A DNA stretch of 64,000 nt from Candidatus Latescibacterota bacterium (GTDB taxonomy: Bacteria; Latescibacterota; UBA2968; UBA8231), in assembly GCA_965203355.1 (NCBI GenBank), contig OZ241889.1:1216001-1280000 (forward strand). The letters are read 5' to 3'. The position numbers and the translations under genes are program-made. Below the pieces are notes generated by a model. The model was not told where the DNA came from. It saw only the letters and a list, made by a program, of their open reading frames with translations, and ran no database searches. How positions within the stretch are numbered: position 1 is the first letter of the stretch; every line of letters starts with the position of its first letter. Shown one piece after another: positions 18,481 through 25,461 of this stretch.

Positions 18481-18587
18481 AATGCCGCTGGGCGCGTCAA
18501 TGCGGGGGTTTGTCTGCGTCATAGGCTATTACTATGTTGAACGGAACGAAGTCGTCCCCGCCACAGTTAAAACCCTGCCTACGACAG

Positions 18588-21500
18588 ATGGAAACAAGAC
18601 TCACGAGAAAAGACCTCGCCTTCATCGGCGGCTGTGTGCTCATTGCCGCCGTTAGTTTGGCCGTTGGAGTTCACTACTTCTACCGGGCCTTTCCCGAAGC
18701 CTCCATTGACTTCCGCGTCACCCGCGACGAGGCCAAGGGGCAAGCGGCCGATTTTATCGCGGCCCGCGGCTTTGATCTGGCCGACTACCGCCACAGTGCC
18801 ATTTTCCACTTCGATAAGCAGACCAAGACCTTCCTCGAGCGCGAGTTGGGTCTCGAGGGGGCGACGCAGGTCATTGGCGATCCCGTGCAGTTGTGGCGCT
18901 GGAGCAACCGCTGGGTGCGGGAGCTGAAAAAGGAGGAGTTCCAAGCCACGGTTACGACGGCTGGCGCGCTGGTCAGTTTTAGCCATCTCATCGAGGAAGA
19001 AGCGCCCGGCGCGCGCTTGGCCGAAGCCGAAGCCCGCCGCTTGGCCGAGACCTTTCTCACGGTTGAGCTGGGCCGCTCGCTCGCCGCGCTCGAATTCGCC
19101 GAGGCGCAGACTCAGGAGCGACCCAACCGCATCGACCATACCTTTAGCTGGAAACTGCGCGGCTTTGCCGTTGGCGATGCTTACTATCGCTTCTACGTGC
19201 GGCTGCAAGGCGACCAGATCGGCGGCTTTGGCGAGTATCTCAAAATTCCCGAGGCGTGGGAGCGCGACTACGCCGAGTTGCGGTCGCACAACGAGACCAC
19301 GGGTTTGGTGGCCGGGACCTTACTTTTCCTAACCATACTGGCGATGCTGGTTTCGTTCTTTAGCGGGGTCCGCGCCCGAGACATCCGCTGGAAAACCGCG
19401 GCGATTTTCGGAGCCATTGCCGCGGTGCTGACGCTGCTGGCCGAACTCAACAACCTACCGCTGACCGCGTTTAACTACGACACGACCGATACCTACGGGT
19501 CTTTTTTGACGCGCCAGTTGCTCAACAGTCTGTTCGCCGCGGCCGCCCAAGGCATTCTCATCTTCTTTCTCACGGCGGCGGCTGAGCCTTTGTACCGACG
19601 ATACTGCGCGGACCAAATTCAGATCGGGAGTCAGTTTACGCCAGCGGGCCTGCGCACCAAGCGCTTTCTCCTCGGCACTATTCTCGGCTTGGCCATGACC
19701 CCCGCTTTCTTGGCCTATCAAGTTCTCTTTTACATCACAGCCGAGCAATTCGGCGCATGGAGTCCGGCGGACATTCCCTACCGCGAGATGGTCAACACCT
19801 ATATCCCGTGGATCATGGTGCTGTTGATCGGCTTTATGCCCGCGGTCTCCGAGGAGTTCATCTCGCGGGCCTTTTCGATTCCCTTCCTGCACAAATACCT
19901 CAAGTTCCGCTGGGTTGCGGTCGTCATCGCGGGTCTTATATGGGGATTTGCTCACGCCAACTACCCGCAACAGCCCTTTTACATTCGCGGCGTTGAGGTG
20001 GGCATCGCCGGTATTGTCGTCGGCTATGTTTTTCTTCGCTTTGGGATCCTGGCCCCCCTCGTATGGCACTACACGATTGACGCCCTGTACACGTCGCTGA
20101 TTCTCTTTCGCTCTTCCAACAGCTACTTCGTGGTTTCAGCGGCCCTGTCGGCGGGCCTGCTGCTACTGCCCTTAGCGGTGGCTCTCGTGCTTTACCTGCG
20201 GCAGCGCCGCTTTGCCGACCCAACGCCCTTGCTCAACAAAAGCGCGGCACCCCCGGCCGCGGAAGCCGTCGCGGCCGAGCCTACCGCGCAACAGCCCACC
20301 GCCCCGGCCCCCACGTTTGCCTATACCCCGCTGTCCAAGCGGCGGGTGGGTTGGGCTGCTGCGGTGGTCGGGGTCTCGCTGGGTTTTTTCGCCCTCGACT
20401 ACGAGAAGCCGCTCGATTTTGTCGATGTCCGGCTGACGCGGGCCGAGGCCGAGGCCAAGGCCATTGAGCATCTAAAGGCGACCGGCGCGGACGCCTCGGC
20501 ATACGAGGTGGTCACCTATTATCAAAACCAACCAGACCGAATGGCGATTCGCTACATCTTGGAGCGAGACTCCGTGGCCGTGGTCAATCGCCTGTACCAA
20601 GCCGATCTGTTGGCCAGCTTGTGGGTGACGCGCTTTTTCCGCTACGGAGAAAAGGAGGAGTACCAGGTCGCCATCCATCCCGAAGACGGCTCTCTCTACA
20701 GCATCAATCACCTGCTGGCCGAAGAGGCCGAGGGCGCGGATCTCGAAGAGGCCCAAGCCCAAGCCATAGCGGTCGAGCACCTGCGGACCTACGGCTTTGC
20801 GGTCGAGCAGTTGGCGCTCAAGGAATCCTCGTCGGAAAAGCTGCCCAACCGCCGCGATCACCGCTTCGTCTTTGAAGCGGTTGAAGGCGACGCGCGCAAC
20901 GTCGATGAACTGCGCTACCGAGTGCGGGTCAACATTGCGGGCGACGAGCCGGTTGCCATCTACCGCTTTCTCAAAGTGCCCGAGGATTGGCGGCGCGTAC
21001 GCCAAGAGAGCACCACGCTCAAAACCGCGCTTTCCGGCTTGCTCATCGTCTTGATTGCCGCCGTGGTGCTGCACGGCCTGTGGCTGCTCGTGCGCCGGGT
21101 GCGGACCGCGGGCCTAGTTTGGTCCCCGCTGATCAAAATTGCCGCGGTCGCCTCGGCCTTCTTCTTACTCGAATTTCTCAATGGCCTGTCGGTTGTCGAA
21201 CGGGCCTACGACACCCGCCTCACGCTGCCGATCTTTACCATTACCCAGCTACTCAGCATGGCCTTGGGCGGCTTGGGTCTCGGCTTGGTGATGCTCGCGG
21301 CCCTCGGCTTGGCCACCAGCCTCTATCCAGACTGGTCGGCGTGCCTGCGGTCTGCGCGGCGCGTACCCGAATTCCGCGACGCGGTGATCGCGGTCTCGCT
21401 GATTCTCGTCGCCAGCGAGGCGTGGCAACACTTGCGCGGCTACGTAGAGAGCCGATTCATCGCCGCCGATCCGAGTATCGGCTTTGGGTTGCCCACTGGA

Positions 21501-21944
21501 TTGGACCAGTATTGGCCCTTTTGGCATACCCTGTACAACGGCGTAACAAACGCCATCTTCCTCCCGATCATCGTTGGCTTGGTGCTTTACTATGGTCGCG
21601 TGGTCATAAAAAAGAAGCTCTACGCAGTCGTGGTGGGCTTGGGGGTGGGCTTGATTGTGTCTGGCGGCAATGCCGTTCACTTTGACGAGTTCCTCTTTGA
21701 GTTGGCGACGTTTGTCGCCAGCATTGGCTTTGTGGTAGCCGCTGTCGTCTTGCTCTTGCGGAACAACCTCCTCGCCTACGTATTGCTGGGATTTGTCTCA
21801 GTGCTCTCGCAAGTCAAGAGCCTCGGGGCGCTGTCGGCACCGGCCTATCAGTTGCAAGCCGGCATTCTGTTGCTGCTAACTCTTTTGGTGATCGTCTGCT
21901 TGTGGTGGCGTTTGGGCGCTGAGCGCGGATCCCGCGTTTCCTGA
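18588..21944 (+). CDS. Large CPBP/CAAX (Abi) family intramembrane metalloprotease with duplicated extracytoplasmic module
   Basis: EEFISRAF, WGFAH, WHYTID motifs; repeated KEEFQ/KEEYQ..HLIEEEAPGA/HLLAEEAEGA..PNRIDH/PNRRDH..LKIPE/LKVPE blocks. Confidence 0.85.
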   Translation: METRLTRKDLAFIGGCVLIAAVSLAVGVHYFYRAFPEASIDFRVTRDEAKGQAADFIAARGFDLADYRHSAIFHFDKQTKTFLERELGLEGATQVIGDPVQLWRWSNRWVRELKKEEFQATVTTAGALVSFSHLIEEEAPGARLAEAEARRLAETFLTVELGRSLAALEFAEAQTQERPNRIDHTFSWKLRGFAVGDAYYRFYVRLQGDQIGGFGEYLKIPEAWERDYAELRSHNETTGLVAGTLLFLTILAMLVSFFSGVRARDIRWKTAAIFGAIAAVLTLLAELNNLPLTAFNYDTTDTYGSFLTRQLLNSLFAAAAQGILIFFLTAAAEPLYRRYCADQIQIGSQFTPAGLRTKRFLLGTILGLAMTPAFLAYQVLFYITAEQFGAWSPADIPYREMVNTYIPWIMVLLIGFMPAVSEEFISRAFSIPFLHKYLKFRWVAVVIAGLIWGFAHANYPQQPFYIRGVEVGIAGIVVGYVFLRFGILAPLVWHYTIDALYTSLILFRSSNSYFVVSAALSAGLLLLPLAVALVLYLRQRRFADPTPLLNKSAAPPAAEAVAAEPTAQQPTAPAPTFAYTPLSKRRVGWAAAVVGVSLGFFALDYEKPLDFVDVRLTRAEAEAKAIEHLKATGADASAYEVVTYYQNQPDRMAIRYILERDSVAVVNRLYQADLLASLWVTRFFRYGEKEEYQVAIHPEDGSLYSINHLLAEEAEGADLEEAQAQAIAVEHLRTYGFAVEQLALKESSSEKLPNRRDHRFVFEAVEGDARNVDELRYRVRVNIAGDEPVAIYRFLKVPEDWRRVRQESTTLKTALSGLLIVLIAAVVLHGLWLLVRRVRTAGLVWSPLIKIAAVASAFFLLEFLNGLSVVERAYDTRLTLPIFTITQLLSMALGGLGLGLVMLAALGLATSLYPDWSACLRSARRVPEFRDAVIAVSLILVASEAWQHLRGYVESRFIAADPSIGFGLPTGLDQYWPFWHTLYNGVTNAIFLPIIVGLVLYYGRVVIKKKLYAVVVGLGVGLIVSGGNAVHFDEFLFELATFVASIGFVVAAVVLLLRNNLLAYVLLGFVSVLSQVKSLGALSAPAYQLQAGILLLLTLLVIVCLWWRLGAERGSRVS

Positions 21945-21982: not shown

Positions 21983-22681
21983 ATGCGCGTACTCGTAACC
22001 GGCGCAGCCGGTCGCGTCGGCTCTACTGTAGCCCGCGGCATGCAAGTGCGCCACCAAGTGCGCGGCCACGACCGCGTGCCCATGCCCGACCTCGCCGATA
22101 CGGTCGTCTCCGATCTCGCGGACTTCGACGCTGTGTTAAAAGCTACGTGCGGCATGGACGCGATTGCCCACATTGGGGGTCTGCCTGGCGGCAACGAGTG
22201 GGAGACCATGCTACCGGGCAACTTCATCGGCACGTACAACGTCTTTGAGGCCGCTCGGCAAAACGGCGTCAAGCGCGTCGCCTACGCCAGCCGCGCCGGC
22301 GTCTTGAGTCTCTATCCGCGCACGATCCACCGCACCGTTGATATGACGACCACGCCGGTGGGTATCTACACGGTCAGCAAAATTTTCGGCGAGGCACTCG
22401 CCCACTCTTTTGCCCATCAGCACGACATGGAATTCGTCTGTGTGCGCATCGGCAATTTCAACCTCGAGCGCGACCAGCCCCAACATCCGCACCACCTCAG
22501 CCACGGCGATTGCGTCCGGGTTTTTGAGCAGGCACTGATTCATCCGGGCGTGCAGTTCGAAATCGTCTTTGGGGTGTCGGGTAGCAATTGGCCGCTCTAC
22601 GACATTGAACACGGCAAGAGGGCGATTGGCTACGAGCCGCAGGATTATTCGGAGGTGCCGGAAGAGGAGTGGGGGAGGTAG
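21983..22681 (+). CDS. NAD-dependent epimerase/dehydratase (uronate dehydrogenase-like SDR)
   Basis: TGAAGRVG, YTVSK (YxxxK), VRIG. Confidence 0.85.
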   Translation: MRVLVTGAAGRVGSTVARGMQVRHQVRGHDRVPMPDLADTVVSDLADFDAVLKATCGMDAIAHIGGLPGGNEWETMLPGNFIGTYNVFEAARQNGVKRVAYASRAGVLSLYPRTIHRTVDMTTTPVGIYTVSKIFGEALAHSFAHQHDMEFVCVRIGNFNLERDQPQHPHHLSHGDCVRVFEQALIHPGVQFEIVFGVSGSNWPLYDIEHGKRAIGYEPQDYSEVPEEEWGR

Positions 22682-22717
22682 GGGCGTTGGATGTTTGGGT
22701 TTTTCTTGCACTTTAGA

Positions 22718-22745
22718 TTGACAGCCCCCGAGCCCCTGTTACATT
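22718..22745 (+). promoter_or_regulatory. Putative sigma70 promoter of the capsid-MNT/HEPN operon
   Basis: TTGACA-N16-TACATT with TG extension; AGGAG RBS at 22831 before ATG 22843. Confidence 0.4.
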
Positions 22746-22842
22746 TCATAACGTCAGTAAAAATCGACGTTAGGTGGGTATTTCTACAACGGAGATACCC
22801 GCCTAAAAATGTGGGTATTTGTATGTAGTTAGGAGAAGCGAT

Positions 22843-24066
22843 ATGACAGATTCGGAACTTCAGCAAGGCCAAGAGATTCTCAAAAATCTGACGGTTGAAG
22901 ACTTGCAGATCCCAGAAGGCCAAGAAAGATTTAATCAAGCGGCGGGAAAGTACATTCGCAGTAAAATTAAAAGTACGTCGCTCTTTTACAAGGTGATACC
23001 TCCTCGATCTGTAACCGAAGACGAATTGGTACCCCTTGGCGACGCGACGGACGGGCAGCCTGATCTAAGATATCGTATGCCTGGGGTCTCGATGCTGGAT
23101 CCATCAAAGTCGGTCAAGGCAATGTTGATGGACATGCGTGGCAAGCCCGTCCCCAATTATACAGACGGTAGGCAGCAACTTTTCATTCCAATGGGCGTAG
23201 TCAAGACCAAACGGTTTGAAAAGACGCCAGTAGAGCTTTTGGCCGCTGGTAGCCTCCTGAAGCTGGTTGAGGAGATGGCGTCTTGGGAGGTCAAGGAGCG
23301 CGATAGAAAGTTTCTGAAGTACTGCGAGTTGGCGGTCAAGAAATCGGGACAAGTGCTCAGGAAGAGCGGACCTTTGCAGAGGGATCACTTCCGCGAAATT
23401 CAGCATCCAGCAATACAAAATGAGATCGAGTCTAAAGTCGTCCTGCTGGCCAAAACGGCCGTTATGGATCTGGACTTAGAAAAATCTGCGGCAAGAATCA
23501 GTGGCATGGAATGTATCTATTCGCAGGACGACGATGTGCTTGCTCCGACAGTGGTATGGTCTTTCCCAACACCAGATCTTCTGGGGTATAATTTGTGTTG
23601 TGGAGACTACAAGTTCTATAGTAAACAAGAGAAAGTAGAGCTGTGGAGCTTCCAAGGCTGGGAGACGATAGGGGCCGGTATTGGCAATATCAATGGTGTT
23701 ACCAAGCTCATCTTGGGCTTCATGGCTGGAGAGAGCAAGATCCCCGATAACTTCGACAGGATGGGCGGTCCTAAGAAGCCAATGATTCCAGCTGAGTATC
23801 GCGCTGATGTGGTTCGGGCGGTGGATATCTGCAAGGAAGAGGGATGCCGAGATGTGTTTGTACTTGGCTCGAACGCAGTTAGAAGACATGGGTCGCAGGC
23901 CGGTCTGGATATAGGCATCCGTGGCTGTCCAGCCAACCACTTCTATCGTCTGCTGGGTCGGTTAATGGAAGAACTCGCTTATCCTGTAGGTTTGATAGAT
24001 TTGGACCGCGAAACTCGGATTGCAGAATTGCTCGAGCGAGAAGGCCAACTCGTACATGTGGGATGA
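22843..24066 (+). CDS. HK97-fold major capsid/encapsulin-like domain fused to a degenerate MNT nucleotidyltransferase
   Basis: aa 1-~292: AAGKYIRSKIKSTSLFYKVIPP, IPMGVVKTKRFEKTPVELLA, ERDRKFLKYCELAV, WETIGAGIGNINGVTKL resemble large-phage capsid proteins; aa 314-407: RAVDICKEEGCRDVFVLGS-x10-GLD...YPVGLIDLD is an MNT pattern with two Asp changed to Gly. Confidence 0.68.
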   Translation: MTDSELQQGQEILKNLTVEDLQIPEGQERFNQAAGKYIRSKIKSTSLFYKVIPPRSVTEDELVPLGDATDGQPDLRYRMPGVSMLDPSKSVKAMLMDMRGKPVPNYTDGRQQLFIPMGVVKTKRFEKTPVELLAAGSLLKLVEEMASWEVKERDRKFLKYCELAVKKSGQVLRKSGPLQRDHFREIQHPAIQNEIESKVVLLAKTAVMDLDLEKSAARISGMECIYSQDDDVLAPTVVWSFPTPDLLGYNLCCGDYKFYSKQEKVELWSFQGWETIGAGIGNINGVTKLILGFMAGESKIPDNFDRMGGPKKPMIPAEYRADVVRAVDICKEEGCRDVFVLGSNAVRRHGSQAGLDIGIRGCPANHFYRLLGRLMEELAYPVGLIDLDRETRIAELLEREGQLVHVG

Positions 24067-24494
24067 GGCTCTCGACCAACACATCGTCGCCGAACTCGAA
24101 CAAATCAATGCCCTACTCGACAAGTCCTCTGCATTAATACAAATTCCAACTGATGTGGCCCCATCCTTTGAGCGTCTGGTGGCCCTATCTGCAATTCTCA
24201 GTTCTTTCTATACCGGCCTTGAGCGAATTTTCGAGCGCATCGCCGACGCAACCCAAAGATGAACGCTGGCATGCCGAATTGCTAAGTCAGGTTGCTCGCC
24301 AAACGGAGAGGCGACCGGCTGTAATATCAGAGGACGCACGACGGCGTTTGAGCGAGTACCTCGCTTTCCGGCATCTTTCCCGGCATGTGTATGTGCATGA
24401 GCTCGTCTGGGATCGCATGGCCCATTTGGTTGCAACTATTTCACAGACATGGGATACGGTCCGGGTAGAGATTTTGCAATTCGCGGATGAATAG
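24056..24494 (+). pseudogene. HepT-like HEPN ribonuclease toxin, frameshifted at ~24251
   Basis: Frame A: LSSFYTGLERIFERIA; frame B: PKDERWHAELL...EYLAFRHLSRHVY (Rx4HxY); start overlaps the upstream stop. Confidence 0.82.
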
Positions 24495-24588
24495 GCTGCT
24501 GTCGCAATTTGGCGGGACCGGTGATGAGATTCCTATGTTCGCAAAATGTCGTGCGAGATTGGCTACTAACTCACAAGAGAGGCTCTCC

Positions 24589-25461
24589 ATGAACCCAAGC
24601 TGCTTGCAGCACTGCATGACCGATGCACAGCGCGATCATTTTGAGCAGCAGGGATATTTGGTCGTCGAGGATGCGCTCGACGACGACATGCTGGGCCGGC
24701 TTTTGGCGGCTGGCGACCGCGTCGATGCCGAGGAAAGGGCGGCGCGTGGCTTGGCCCCCCAAGCCCTGATGGCGAAGTTCAGGACTATCGTCGAGGATGA
24801 TGTTTTTCTCGAACTGCTCGATTGGCCCAAGACGTTCCCGCTGATATGGGACATTCTCGGCTGGAATGTCCAGCACTATATCTCGCATTTGATCTACTAC
24901 CCACCCGAAGCCAAAAACAGCATCAATCTGAAACCCGGAGGATGGCACCAGGACGGCGGCCGACCCGTCCCCGAAATGGAGCGTCCCCACCCGAGATTGT
25001 CGCTGAAGGTCGGATTTTGGCTGACCGACATCAGCGAGCCGGATCGGGGGGGCATCAGGATCGTCCCCACAAGCCACAAGCGCGATCAGCCGCCCGATTT
25101 TGCCGAGGCCATGCAGGTGCAGGTGCCGGCGGGCACGGCCGTGCTGTTCGACCGCCGGATGTGGCACGCGCGCGGAATCAATACCTCGGAGACGACCCGG
25201 AAAGTGTTGTTTTTAGGGTATAGCTATCGCTGGCTGCGCGGCCTCGACTACAACTTGATGCCCGCTGAGATTCTCGCCAAGTGTAGTCCCATACGCCGAC
25301 AATTGCTCGGCGATGGGGTGGATGTCAAAGGGTGGTGGCAGCCGACCGATGCGGACGTGCCCCTCAAGGGCTGGCTGACCGAGCACAAGGGAGAGGAATA
25401 CGTCGAGCGGATTGGGCAAAAGCAGTGGGAACGGGAAAAGTGGGAAGGGCCGGCCAGCTAA
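24589..25461 (+). CDS. Phytanoyl-CoA dioxygenase (PhyH) family 2OG-Fe(II) oxygenase
   Basis: FEQQGYLVVEDAL, WHQD, VPTSHK, LFDRRMWHA. Confidence 0.9.
   Translation: MNPSCLQHCMTDAQRDHFEQQGYLVVEDALDDDMLGRLLAAGDRVDAEERAARGLAPQALMAKFRTIVEDDVFLELLDWPKTFPLIWDILGWNVQHYISHLIYYPPEAKNSINLKPGGWHQDGGRPVPEMERPHPRLSLKVGFWLTDISEPDRGGIRIVPTSHKRDQPPDFAEAMQVQVPAGTAVLFDRRMWHARGINTSETTRKVLFLGYSYRWLRGLDYNLMPAEILAKCSPIRRQLLGDGVDVKGWWQPTDADVPLKGWLTEHKGEEYVERIGQKQWEREKWEGPAS

Follow-up and report, generated by a model that had tools for sequence, protein, structure and literature searches.

A candidate capsid-fold antitoxin and its toxin-less fusion to an MNT domain in a Latescibacterota genome

We analysed a 64,000-nucleotide stretch of DNA from a Candidatus Latescibacterota bacterium (assembly GCA_965203355.1, contig OZ241889.1; hereafter the window) that carries, among metabolic genes, a 407-amino-acid (aa) open reading frame (ORF) in which a domain resembling HK97-fold phage capsid proteins is joined to a domain derived from an MNT antitoxin, followed by a HEPN gene. 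The closest described systems are VapBC and HepT/MntA toxin-antitoxin (TA) modules, encapsulins, defences triggered by the phage major capsid protein (MCP), and the MCP homologs of phage satellites. A preliminary description of this DNA had proposed a working antiphage system in which a capsid bait fused to an MNT antitoxin restrains a HEPN RNase. We favour a different reading, to which we give a probability of roughly 0.55, namely that a TA module whose antitoxin body is a domesticated HK97-fold capsid domain survives in the window as a rearranged derivative without its toxin.

In VapBC modules such as FitAB, the gene of a PIN-domain toxin directly follows that of an antitoxin with a DNA-binding N-terminal domain. 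Relatives of the window ORF show this classical VapB layout, with a 128-aa PIN gene abutting an upstream gene whose tail also occurs on small ribbon-helix-helix (RHH)-like proteins, but a ~290-aa HK97-fold domain replaces the DNA-binding domain, and in the window vapC is gone and the tail is down to 20 of its ~34 residues. HepT/MntA modules share with our locus the order MNT then HEPN, the overlapping stop and start codons, and a HEPN protein of the HepT-like_2 type with an Rx4H motif; here, however, the MNT forms the C-terminal end of a larger protein and its DxD motif has lost the first acidic residue, and the HEPN gene is a pseudogene. Encapsulins are likewise encoded by stand-alone chromosomal HK97-fold genes outside any phage head module and are among the top fold matches, whereas the present protein belongs to no encapsulin sequence family, has no cargo enzyme, and bears an antitoxin-type tail with a toxin as neighbour in its relatives. 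The satellite MCP homologs of the PICI Ccm type are also HK97-fold homologs outside a complete phage and could co-assemble with helper capsid proteins, but no satellite genes (integrase, packaging) lie near our locus, whose slot is fixed, vertically inherited and toxin-linked. CapRel and Lit recognise the phage capsid protein with unrelated host domains. CapRel(SJ46) and other MCP-triggered defences resemble our locus in linking a TA-type module to a phage capsid protein (PMC9712102). CapRel itself is without a capsid fold and senses the phage capsid by means of its antitoxin domain, whereas at our locus the capsid fold belongs to the host protein.

Fold and toxin partner of the capsid-like protein

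The coding features of the locus are as follows.

22843..24066, plus strand: chimeric ORF of 407 aa, opening on ATG, with a capsid-like domain, a remnant of a VapB-type tail and an MNT-derived domain
22843..23715, plus strand: HK97-fold MCP-like domain, aa 1-291, predicted from an AlphaFold2 (AF2) model, Foldseek and distant relatives
23713..23772, plus strand: tail remnant, aa 291-310, LGFMAGESKIPDNFDRMGGP, 20 of ~34 residues of the VapB-type tail, from alignment A1
23773..23784, plus strand: fusion junction, aa 311-314, KKPM, from DNA comparison with the unfused locus L006 and the fused locus L001
23785..24063, plus strand: MNT-derived domain, Pol-beta nucleotidyltransferase (NTase)-like and degenerate, aa 315-407, 65% identical to the MNT of L006
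24056..24494, plus strand: HepT-like HEPN pseudogene, with a 14-bp deletion between 24244 and 24245, a premature TGA at 24260-24262, and RHLSRH (Rx4H) at 24369-24386 in the shifted frame

The AF2 model of the window protein, built on 29 homologs, reached a mean predicted local distance difference test (pLDDT) of 69.3 and a predicted TM-score (pTM) of 0.65. Over aa 1-290 its blocks score mostly 70-92 (lowest 59-65), and it has a helix at 24-45, a 31-residue spine helix at 138-168 and a strand pattern fitting HK97. Foldseek returned 198 PDB matches at E<=1e-3, with HK97-type capsids or encapsulins at every listed position down to rank 50. The viral models of BFVD gave 169 matches at the same threshold; nearly all of those that carry a name are capsid or head proteins, and the best is gp27 of Bacillus phage G (2.7e-11). 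An exhaustive HMMER search gave 291 relatives at E<=1e-3, many of them ~300 aa long and ending where the capsid-like domain of the query ends. Five of ten distant relatives scanned match phrog_2522 'major head protein' (E 5e-7 to 1.5e-9), and one relative on a 189-kb viral contig lies 2.1 kb from a match to a head-maturation protease. By its predicted structure and these relatives, the segment aa 1-291 is an HK97-fold capsid homolog, and the resemblance to HK97 capsids and encapsulins noted in the preliminary description is borne out. Profile searches with the 407-aa protein against Pfam, PHROGs, NCBIfam and PADLOC gave nothing significant, the best being NF042927 at E 0.18 and 10.7 bits against a cutoff of 80.

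Encapsulins among the best PDB fold matches (TM-score by target 0.47-0.62), and a gene that is chromosomal, stand-alone and vertically inherited, might point to an encapsulin-like nanocompartment whose shell displays or sequesters a toxin or antitoxin by means of the C-terminal extension. We consider this very improbable. Viral structures outscore encapsulins in the Foldseek comparison (2.7e-11 vs ~2e-6), the sequence relatives are phage head proteins, and no encapsulin Pfam family is matched. The neighbours in these loci are PIN, MNT and HEPN genes, with no known cargo type or targeting-peptide partner nearby, and the words toxin, antitoxin and PIN are absent from the searched passages of an encapsulin survey (PMC8346489).

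The partner of the capsid-like domain emerged from its close homologs. Including the query, these number 29, of which three are fused proteins of 407-408 aa, 24 are 310-382 aa long, one is a fragment and one, at 37% identity, has no tail. The standalone proteins end in a conserved C-terminus, ..SSRRLGFMAGxIKVPDDFDSMGGPEIEKMFGG, and where the capsid-like proteins are named in public sources they are called only 'hypothetical protein'. We compared the window with eight genome loci (L001-L008) from seven Latescibacterota/Latescibacteria metagenome-assembled genomes (MAGs) and one Gemmatimonadota MAG; all nine share one synteny, with an epimerase upstream and a PhyH dioxygenase downstream. Their layouts differ as follows.

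L003, L006, L007 and L008: standalone gene with tail, PIN abutting; separate MNT of 99-100 aa after the PIN; HEPN not found by tblastn
L004: standalone gene with tail, PIN abutting; no MNT; HEPN not found
L005: standalone gene with tail, PIN abutting; separate MNT further downstream; intact HEPN of 160 aa
L002: standalone gene and PIN, followed by an AbiEi gene on the opposite strand and a fused copy; MNT fused; HEPN with internal deletion
L001: fused gene only; MNT fused; intact HEPN of 150 aa
Window: fused gene only; MNT fused; HEPN with 14-bp deletion

After all seven standalone copies (L002a and L003-L008) a PIN gene of 128 aa (PF01850, E 1.2e-10) abuts at 0 to -4 nt. Its homologs are labelled 'VapC family toxin' in some sources, and it has no match at E<=1e-3 among PDB sequences. 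No PIN gene was found by tblastn across the 64-kb window, which in this respect differs from its standalone relatives. Where a VapB would carry a DNA-binding N-terminal domain (RHH, AbrB, helix-turn-helix or Phd), an HK97 fold was found instead. The ancestral module would have had a ~290-aa capsid-like domain in place of the usual DNA-binding domain of a VapB-type antitoxin, and a tail that presumably served as the VapC-neutralising segment. Most likely, the capsid-like body of this ancestor would have coupled VapC release to phage head assembly; co-assembly with incoming capsid or scaffold proteins, or cleavage by the prohead protease, would free the toxin and lead to abortive infection. The idea of a bait or sensor, put forward at first for the capsid-MNT-HEPN arrangement, may apply to this capsid-like/VapC module.

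A tail that accompanies VapC

We searched with the L006 protein against 60 relatives of one of the locus genomes. The search gave nine full-length places in eight genomes and 19 places where only the tail is present (aa ~278-311, 74-91% identity). In nine of these 19, the tail is the C-terminus of small RHH-like proteins (FitA-like RHH and DUF6364, both below the Pfam gathering score). It also ends a 306-aa protein without assigned family (three places and one truncated form), an Nmad2 protein (PF18753, E 1.2e-72), a large helicase-like protein with an MrfA Zn-binding domain (PF09369, E 3.9e-13; stop-to-stop frame of 1888 aa) and a DUF433 protein; elsewhere it occurs as a bare 30-aa fragment, and two of the 19 places have no tail ORF by the pattern used. 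The 306-aa protein matched neither a Pfam nor a PHROG family, and the Atlas gave no usable match for it. Downstream of the 19 places lies a full PIN gene in five, a PIN remnant of 30-32 aa in five and no PIN in nine. The five places with a full PIN all have large carriers, each followed by the same VapC (81-85% identical). The nine small RHH-like carriers are all among the places that have lost the PIN gene and are therefore orphan VapB-like antitoxins.

From gene order and architecture we read the tail as a module, the VapC-binding segment of a VapB-type antitoxin, which recombination has attached to various bodies; tail and VapC together look like a swappable antitoxin-tail/VapC cassette. 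A complex prediction for the PIN protein with L006 residues 262-312 lends weak support, with an interface score (ipSAE) of 0.54 (runs 0.50-0.59) against 0.00 for the best of three controls; at least 88% of contacts are common to the runs, and the pLDDT of the partner is at least 59. In the calibration of this method 58 of 80 solved complexes and 2 of 110 mismatched pairs passed the mark; only seven of those 80, together with both passing mismatches, did so with a score of 0.60 or under. Because VapBC complexes have already been solved, the score may reflect likeness rather than binding.

A broader reading takes these carriers together, and we offer it tentatively, as a possibility. The HK97-fold domain would be a sensor of phage head assembly with interchangeable neutralising modules (the VapB tail for VapC in most genomes, or MNT for HEPN in fusions of the L001 type), and the ~34-aa tail would tether the same VapC to conflict-type proteins (capsid-like, Nmad2, MrfA-type helicase, DUF433). 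Such a guard-style family would free the RNase when its carrier is damaged or sequestered.

The tail-carrier loci (L035-L054, in relatives G004-G046) include, for example, L046:883-1988, L051:1109-3072 and L036:691-1994. The PIN gene is lost at 14 of the 19 tail-only places (L037-L043, L045, L047, L048, L050 and L052-L054), and at L041, L042 and L045 a TPR-like gene of 179-185 aa stands downstream in place of the PIN gene.

Origin of the fusion and decay of the MNT-HEPN pair

In their DNA, the fused genes retain the tail as far as MGGP, continue with four codons and then enter the MNT from IP(A/D)EY. Compared with the L006-type arrangement, ~475 bp are missing, corresponding to the tail end, vapC and the spacer. 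In the window lineage a single deletion of about this size would have removed all three and made the reading frame of the capsid-antitoxin run on into the gene behind it, which encoded the MNT antitoxin of an MNT-HEPN pair. In a tree whose rows were cut at the tail and which leaves out the fragment P0030, the three fused copies group as a single clade (100/100) inside a 27-row Latescibacterota group (99/99), on a long stem branch of 0.24. The fusion had been taken as the primary design of the system; it is a secondary junction, and the conserved partner in the standalone relatives is a VapC PIN protein, presumably reached through a VapB-like tail. The MIPAEY motif stands at 23782 as described; an internal ATG at this position as a separate MNT start is ruled out, since L001 and L002 have no ATG there. 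Contigs from two runs of study P1 (X1 and X3), which may be the source, show 0 differences from this stretch. Outside that study the fusion junction rests on the homologs, as the pieces from X4 (study P2) do not span it by 31 letters on both sides.

The C-terminal part is of MNT origin, as had been recognised. L006 has a separate 100-aa MNT that passes PF18765 and PF01909, and residues 315-407 of the window protein share 65% identity with it (E 6e-45). In Pol-beta-type nucleotidyltransferases the motif is GS...DxD, and its DxD pair is catalytic. In the window, Gly354 (23902-23904) replaces the first acidic residue of DxD (GS..AGLD vs GS..SDLD in the separate MNTs); the same Gly is present in all three fused copies, which therefore lack the intact GS...DxD of HepT/MntA modules. 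The window segment matches no NTase Pfam model at E<=1.

The stop codon of the chimeric ORF (24064-24066) overlaps the ATG at 24056 that opens the HEPN frame, as stated beforehand, and the HEPN gene is of HepT type with RHLSRHVY out of frame, as had been implied. Its first frame, of 68 codons (24056-24262), matches positions 1-23 of PF20797; its second (24249-24494), with RHLSRHVY, matches positions 27-108 (E 2.7e-21). The 14-bp deletion was placed by alignment with the intact genes of L001 and L005, and tblastn also finds two frames. The Rx4-6H motif of an intact HEPN is present, but its ORF is split. The stretch 24037-24500, across the deletion, has 0 differences in the X4 contig, which comes from a different study (P2); an assembly artefact is ruled out as the cause, as the frameshift is identical in the X1/X3 and X4 contigs, and we regard it as real because it is reproduced in the second study's contig. 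In L002 only aa 1-17 and 92-147 of HEPN are left (an internal deletion of ~74 codons). An intact HEPN is therefore found in one of three fused loci, L001, where it encodes 150 aa (PF20797, E 6.9e-33) and overlaps the stop of the fused gene.

These changes bear directly on the proposal that a capsid bait with an MNT antitoxin restrains the HEPN RNase until capsid assembly or the prohead protease frees it. The fused architecture is real and recurs, the search for other capsid-MNT fusions having found two further genomes, so that three genomes form one clade; L001 pairs it with an intact HEPN; and the fused gene is under purifying selection. Nevertheless, we regard this proposal as very unlikely. 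The HEPN gene is frameshifted here, also in the contig of the second study, and internally deleted in L002, which speaks against a working system at the window. The fused MNT, which had been assumed active, has no first catalytic Asp in any of its three copies and fails the NTase models, and this loss matters because MntA neutralises HepT by nucleotidylylating it. In addition, it is VapC rather than HEPN that goes with the capsid-like domain as its conserved partner. According to the reading we favour, the MNT would have lost the first acidic residue of its DxD motif after the fusion, and separate events would have disabled HEPN in two of the three fused genomes, in the window the 14-bp deletion. 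What remains would be a locus without a functional toxin, encoding a 407-aa orphan antitoxin-like chimera that is predicted to be expressed from a conserved promoter and is still under purifying selection.

Separate, intact-looking MNT genes (PF18765, DxD kept, dN/dS 0.13) stand directly after VapC at L003:6053-6355, L006:6388-6690, L007:5635-5934 and L008:6437-6739. These orphan MNT antitoxins are under strong constraint, and no HEPN is detectable in the four loci.

Expression signals, constraint and genomic setting

The signals in front of the chimeric ORF are the following.

22718..22745, plus strand: sigma-70-type promoter-like site, TTGACA-16 nt-TACATT, with TG before the -10 element and 10 of 12 consensus matches
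22772..22804, plus strand: hairpin of 13 pairs in the 5' untranslated region (UTR), conserved, from RNAalifold on ten copies
22831..22835, plus strand: AGGAG ribosome-binding site, 7 nt before the ATG at 22843

A further in-frame TTG lies at 22819. Lower GC, the TTGACA site and the AGGAG site had all been reported before and were found again; GC is 0.465-0.53 over 22600-24600 against 0.60-0.65 in the flanks, and the island measures 1.9 kb. In all ten aligned copies upstream of capsid-like genes TTGACA is invariant and the -10 element near-invariant (first base 90% conserved). Pairs of the hairpin are mostly invariant, with one compensatory change and several G-U changes, and an Rfam scan of 22500-24600 gave zero families at E<=1, the hairpin included. 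The ~130 nt upstream of the capsid-like genes (window 22684-22842; L001-L008) have 85% column identity across the ten copies, which exceeds the conservation of the coding sequence. This conserved stretch with its hairpin may be the regulatory 5' UTR of an antitoxin that has no DNA-binding domain.

The ratio of nonsynonymous to synonymous divergence (dN/dS, Nei-Gojobori) for the fused gene is 0.28-0.45 (window against the two other fused copies), with 0.29-0.52 for the capsid part and 0.25-0.27 for the MNT part against 0.13 for separate MNTs. Standalone capsid-like genes have a median of 0.35 (21 pairs), the PIN gene 0.23 and the flanking epimerase 0.10. Synonymous divergence differs little from gene to gene (about 0.2-0.37), which is what vertical descent would produce. 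Constraint on the capsid-like genes is present but loose, and this fits conflict genes inherited vertically in the clade.

These values also weigh on the view that the locus is a chance relic, in which a prophage capsid gene happened to acquire a VapB tail, and afterwards an MNT, by recombination in a churning TA island and is now drifting to loss with no role in sensing or assembly. The island is indeed fluid: MNTs stand without HEPN at L003, L006, L007 and L008, the PIN gene is a remnant or lost at 14 of 19 tail-only places, and AbiEi and HigBA genes have been inserted. Its GC is below that of the flanks, and the stem branch of the fused clade is long (0.24). Yet the capsid-like part has kept a dN/dS of 0.28-0.52 over a dS of 0.2-0.36, its reading frame is intact in all ten copies across nine genomes, and promoter and UTR are more conserved than the coding sequence. 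A mere relic is, in our judgement, unlikely.

The same constraint would suit a capsid-like protein that is itself the effector, a dominant-negative or size-redirecting subunit that poisons the heads of related phages. Toxins would then be dispensable, which would explain why the gene persists after the loss of both. The full HK97 fold is retained, gene, promoter and 5' UTR are conserved in ten of ten copies, and dN/dS is below 1 even in the toxin-less copies of the window and L002. Satellite MCP homologs that redirect capsids provide a precedent. Tai provides another, a defence reported to act by blocking tail assembly (PMC11364771). Against this stand the absence of a known related phage MCP, the relatives on viral contigs being 22-25% identical at closest and annotated phage records giving no match, and the strict linkage of tail and PIN in seven of seven standalone copies, which a direct effector leaves unexplained. 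We hold a direct effector to be improbable, though not to the degree of the nanocompartment.

Several points weigh against the derivation from a capsid-fold antitoxin that we favour. Every step of it rests on computational evidence. No phage is tied to the capsid-like domain: tblastn with the N-domain against 50,697 annotated phage records gave zero matches, and scans with alignment A4 of viral and metagenome contigs found distant relatives only (19-27% identity; six and seven loci), with no phage source among them. The antitoxin role of the tail is drawn from gene order, from small RHH-like carriers with sub-gathering Pfam scores and from a weak complex prediction; the tail matches no Pfam family and has 0 matches at E<=10 among PDB sequences. 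Whether the fused clade is nested in the standalone ones or sister to them is a polytomy in the tree. L002 holds a standalone capsid-like/PIN pair and a fused gene 1.6 kb apart, and because it carries both forms, the fusion arose in a second, duplicated or imported, copy of the cassette; a simple deletion in place is no more than the most parsimonious account. That the fused gene and also its MNT part are under purifying selection suggests that the chimera may have a further function. Finally, a VapC or HEPN protein encoded elsewhere in the genome of the window could act in trans.

The surroundings of the locus are ordinary, in line with the orphan, non-phage context described at the outset. 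The flanking genes of the window encode an Rce1-like membrane protein, an NAD epimerase, a PhyH dioxygenase, a second epimerase and a DMFA2_C protein; these flanks are metabolic, with no head-morphogenesis module (portal, terminase, protease), and the same synteny is present at the eight other loci. Just upstream of the island, at 18534-21944, lies a gene for a 1136-aa multi-pass membrane protein that combines an Rce1-like CPBP protease domain with a YcdB/YcdC repeat. In other genomes the slot between epimerase and PhyH holds a HigB toxin with a 406-aa partner combining a helix-turn-helix with an M78 peptidase (IrrE-like) (L006:6876-8392 and L007:6121-7637), or an AbiEi antitoxin gene on the minus strand without an obvious AbiEii (L002:3841-4650 and L004:6438-7247). 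With these genes also collecting there, the slot looks like a hotspot for toxin-antitoxin and abortive-infection cassettes.

Full-text literature searches returned no description of a capsid-fold antitoxin, and none was seen in the passages of PMC10440598, 10.64898/2026.01.04.697583, PMC8346489 and PMC8987985 that a term search brought up; the capsid-fold antitoxin/VapC family looks new. If the reading is true, an antitoxin with a capsid-fold body would follow a different logic from known capsid-sensing defences, a host-encoded capsid subunit wired to a toxin, and would be a second kind of HK97-fold domestication besides encapsulins. One short conserved tail that links the same VapC to very different carriers would offer a testable route by which large 'sensor' antitoxins may evolve through domain swapping. 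The window copy would show how such a module decays, with the toxins lost first and the antitoxin-like chimera kept.

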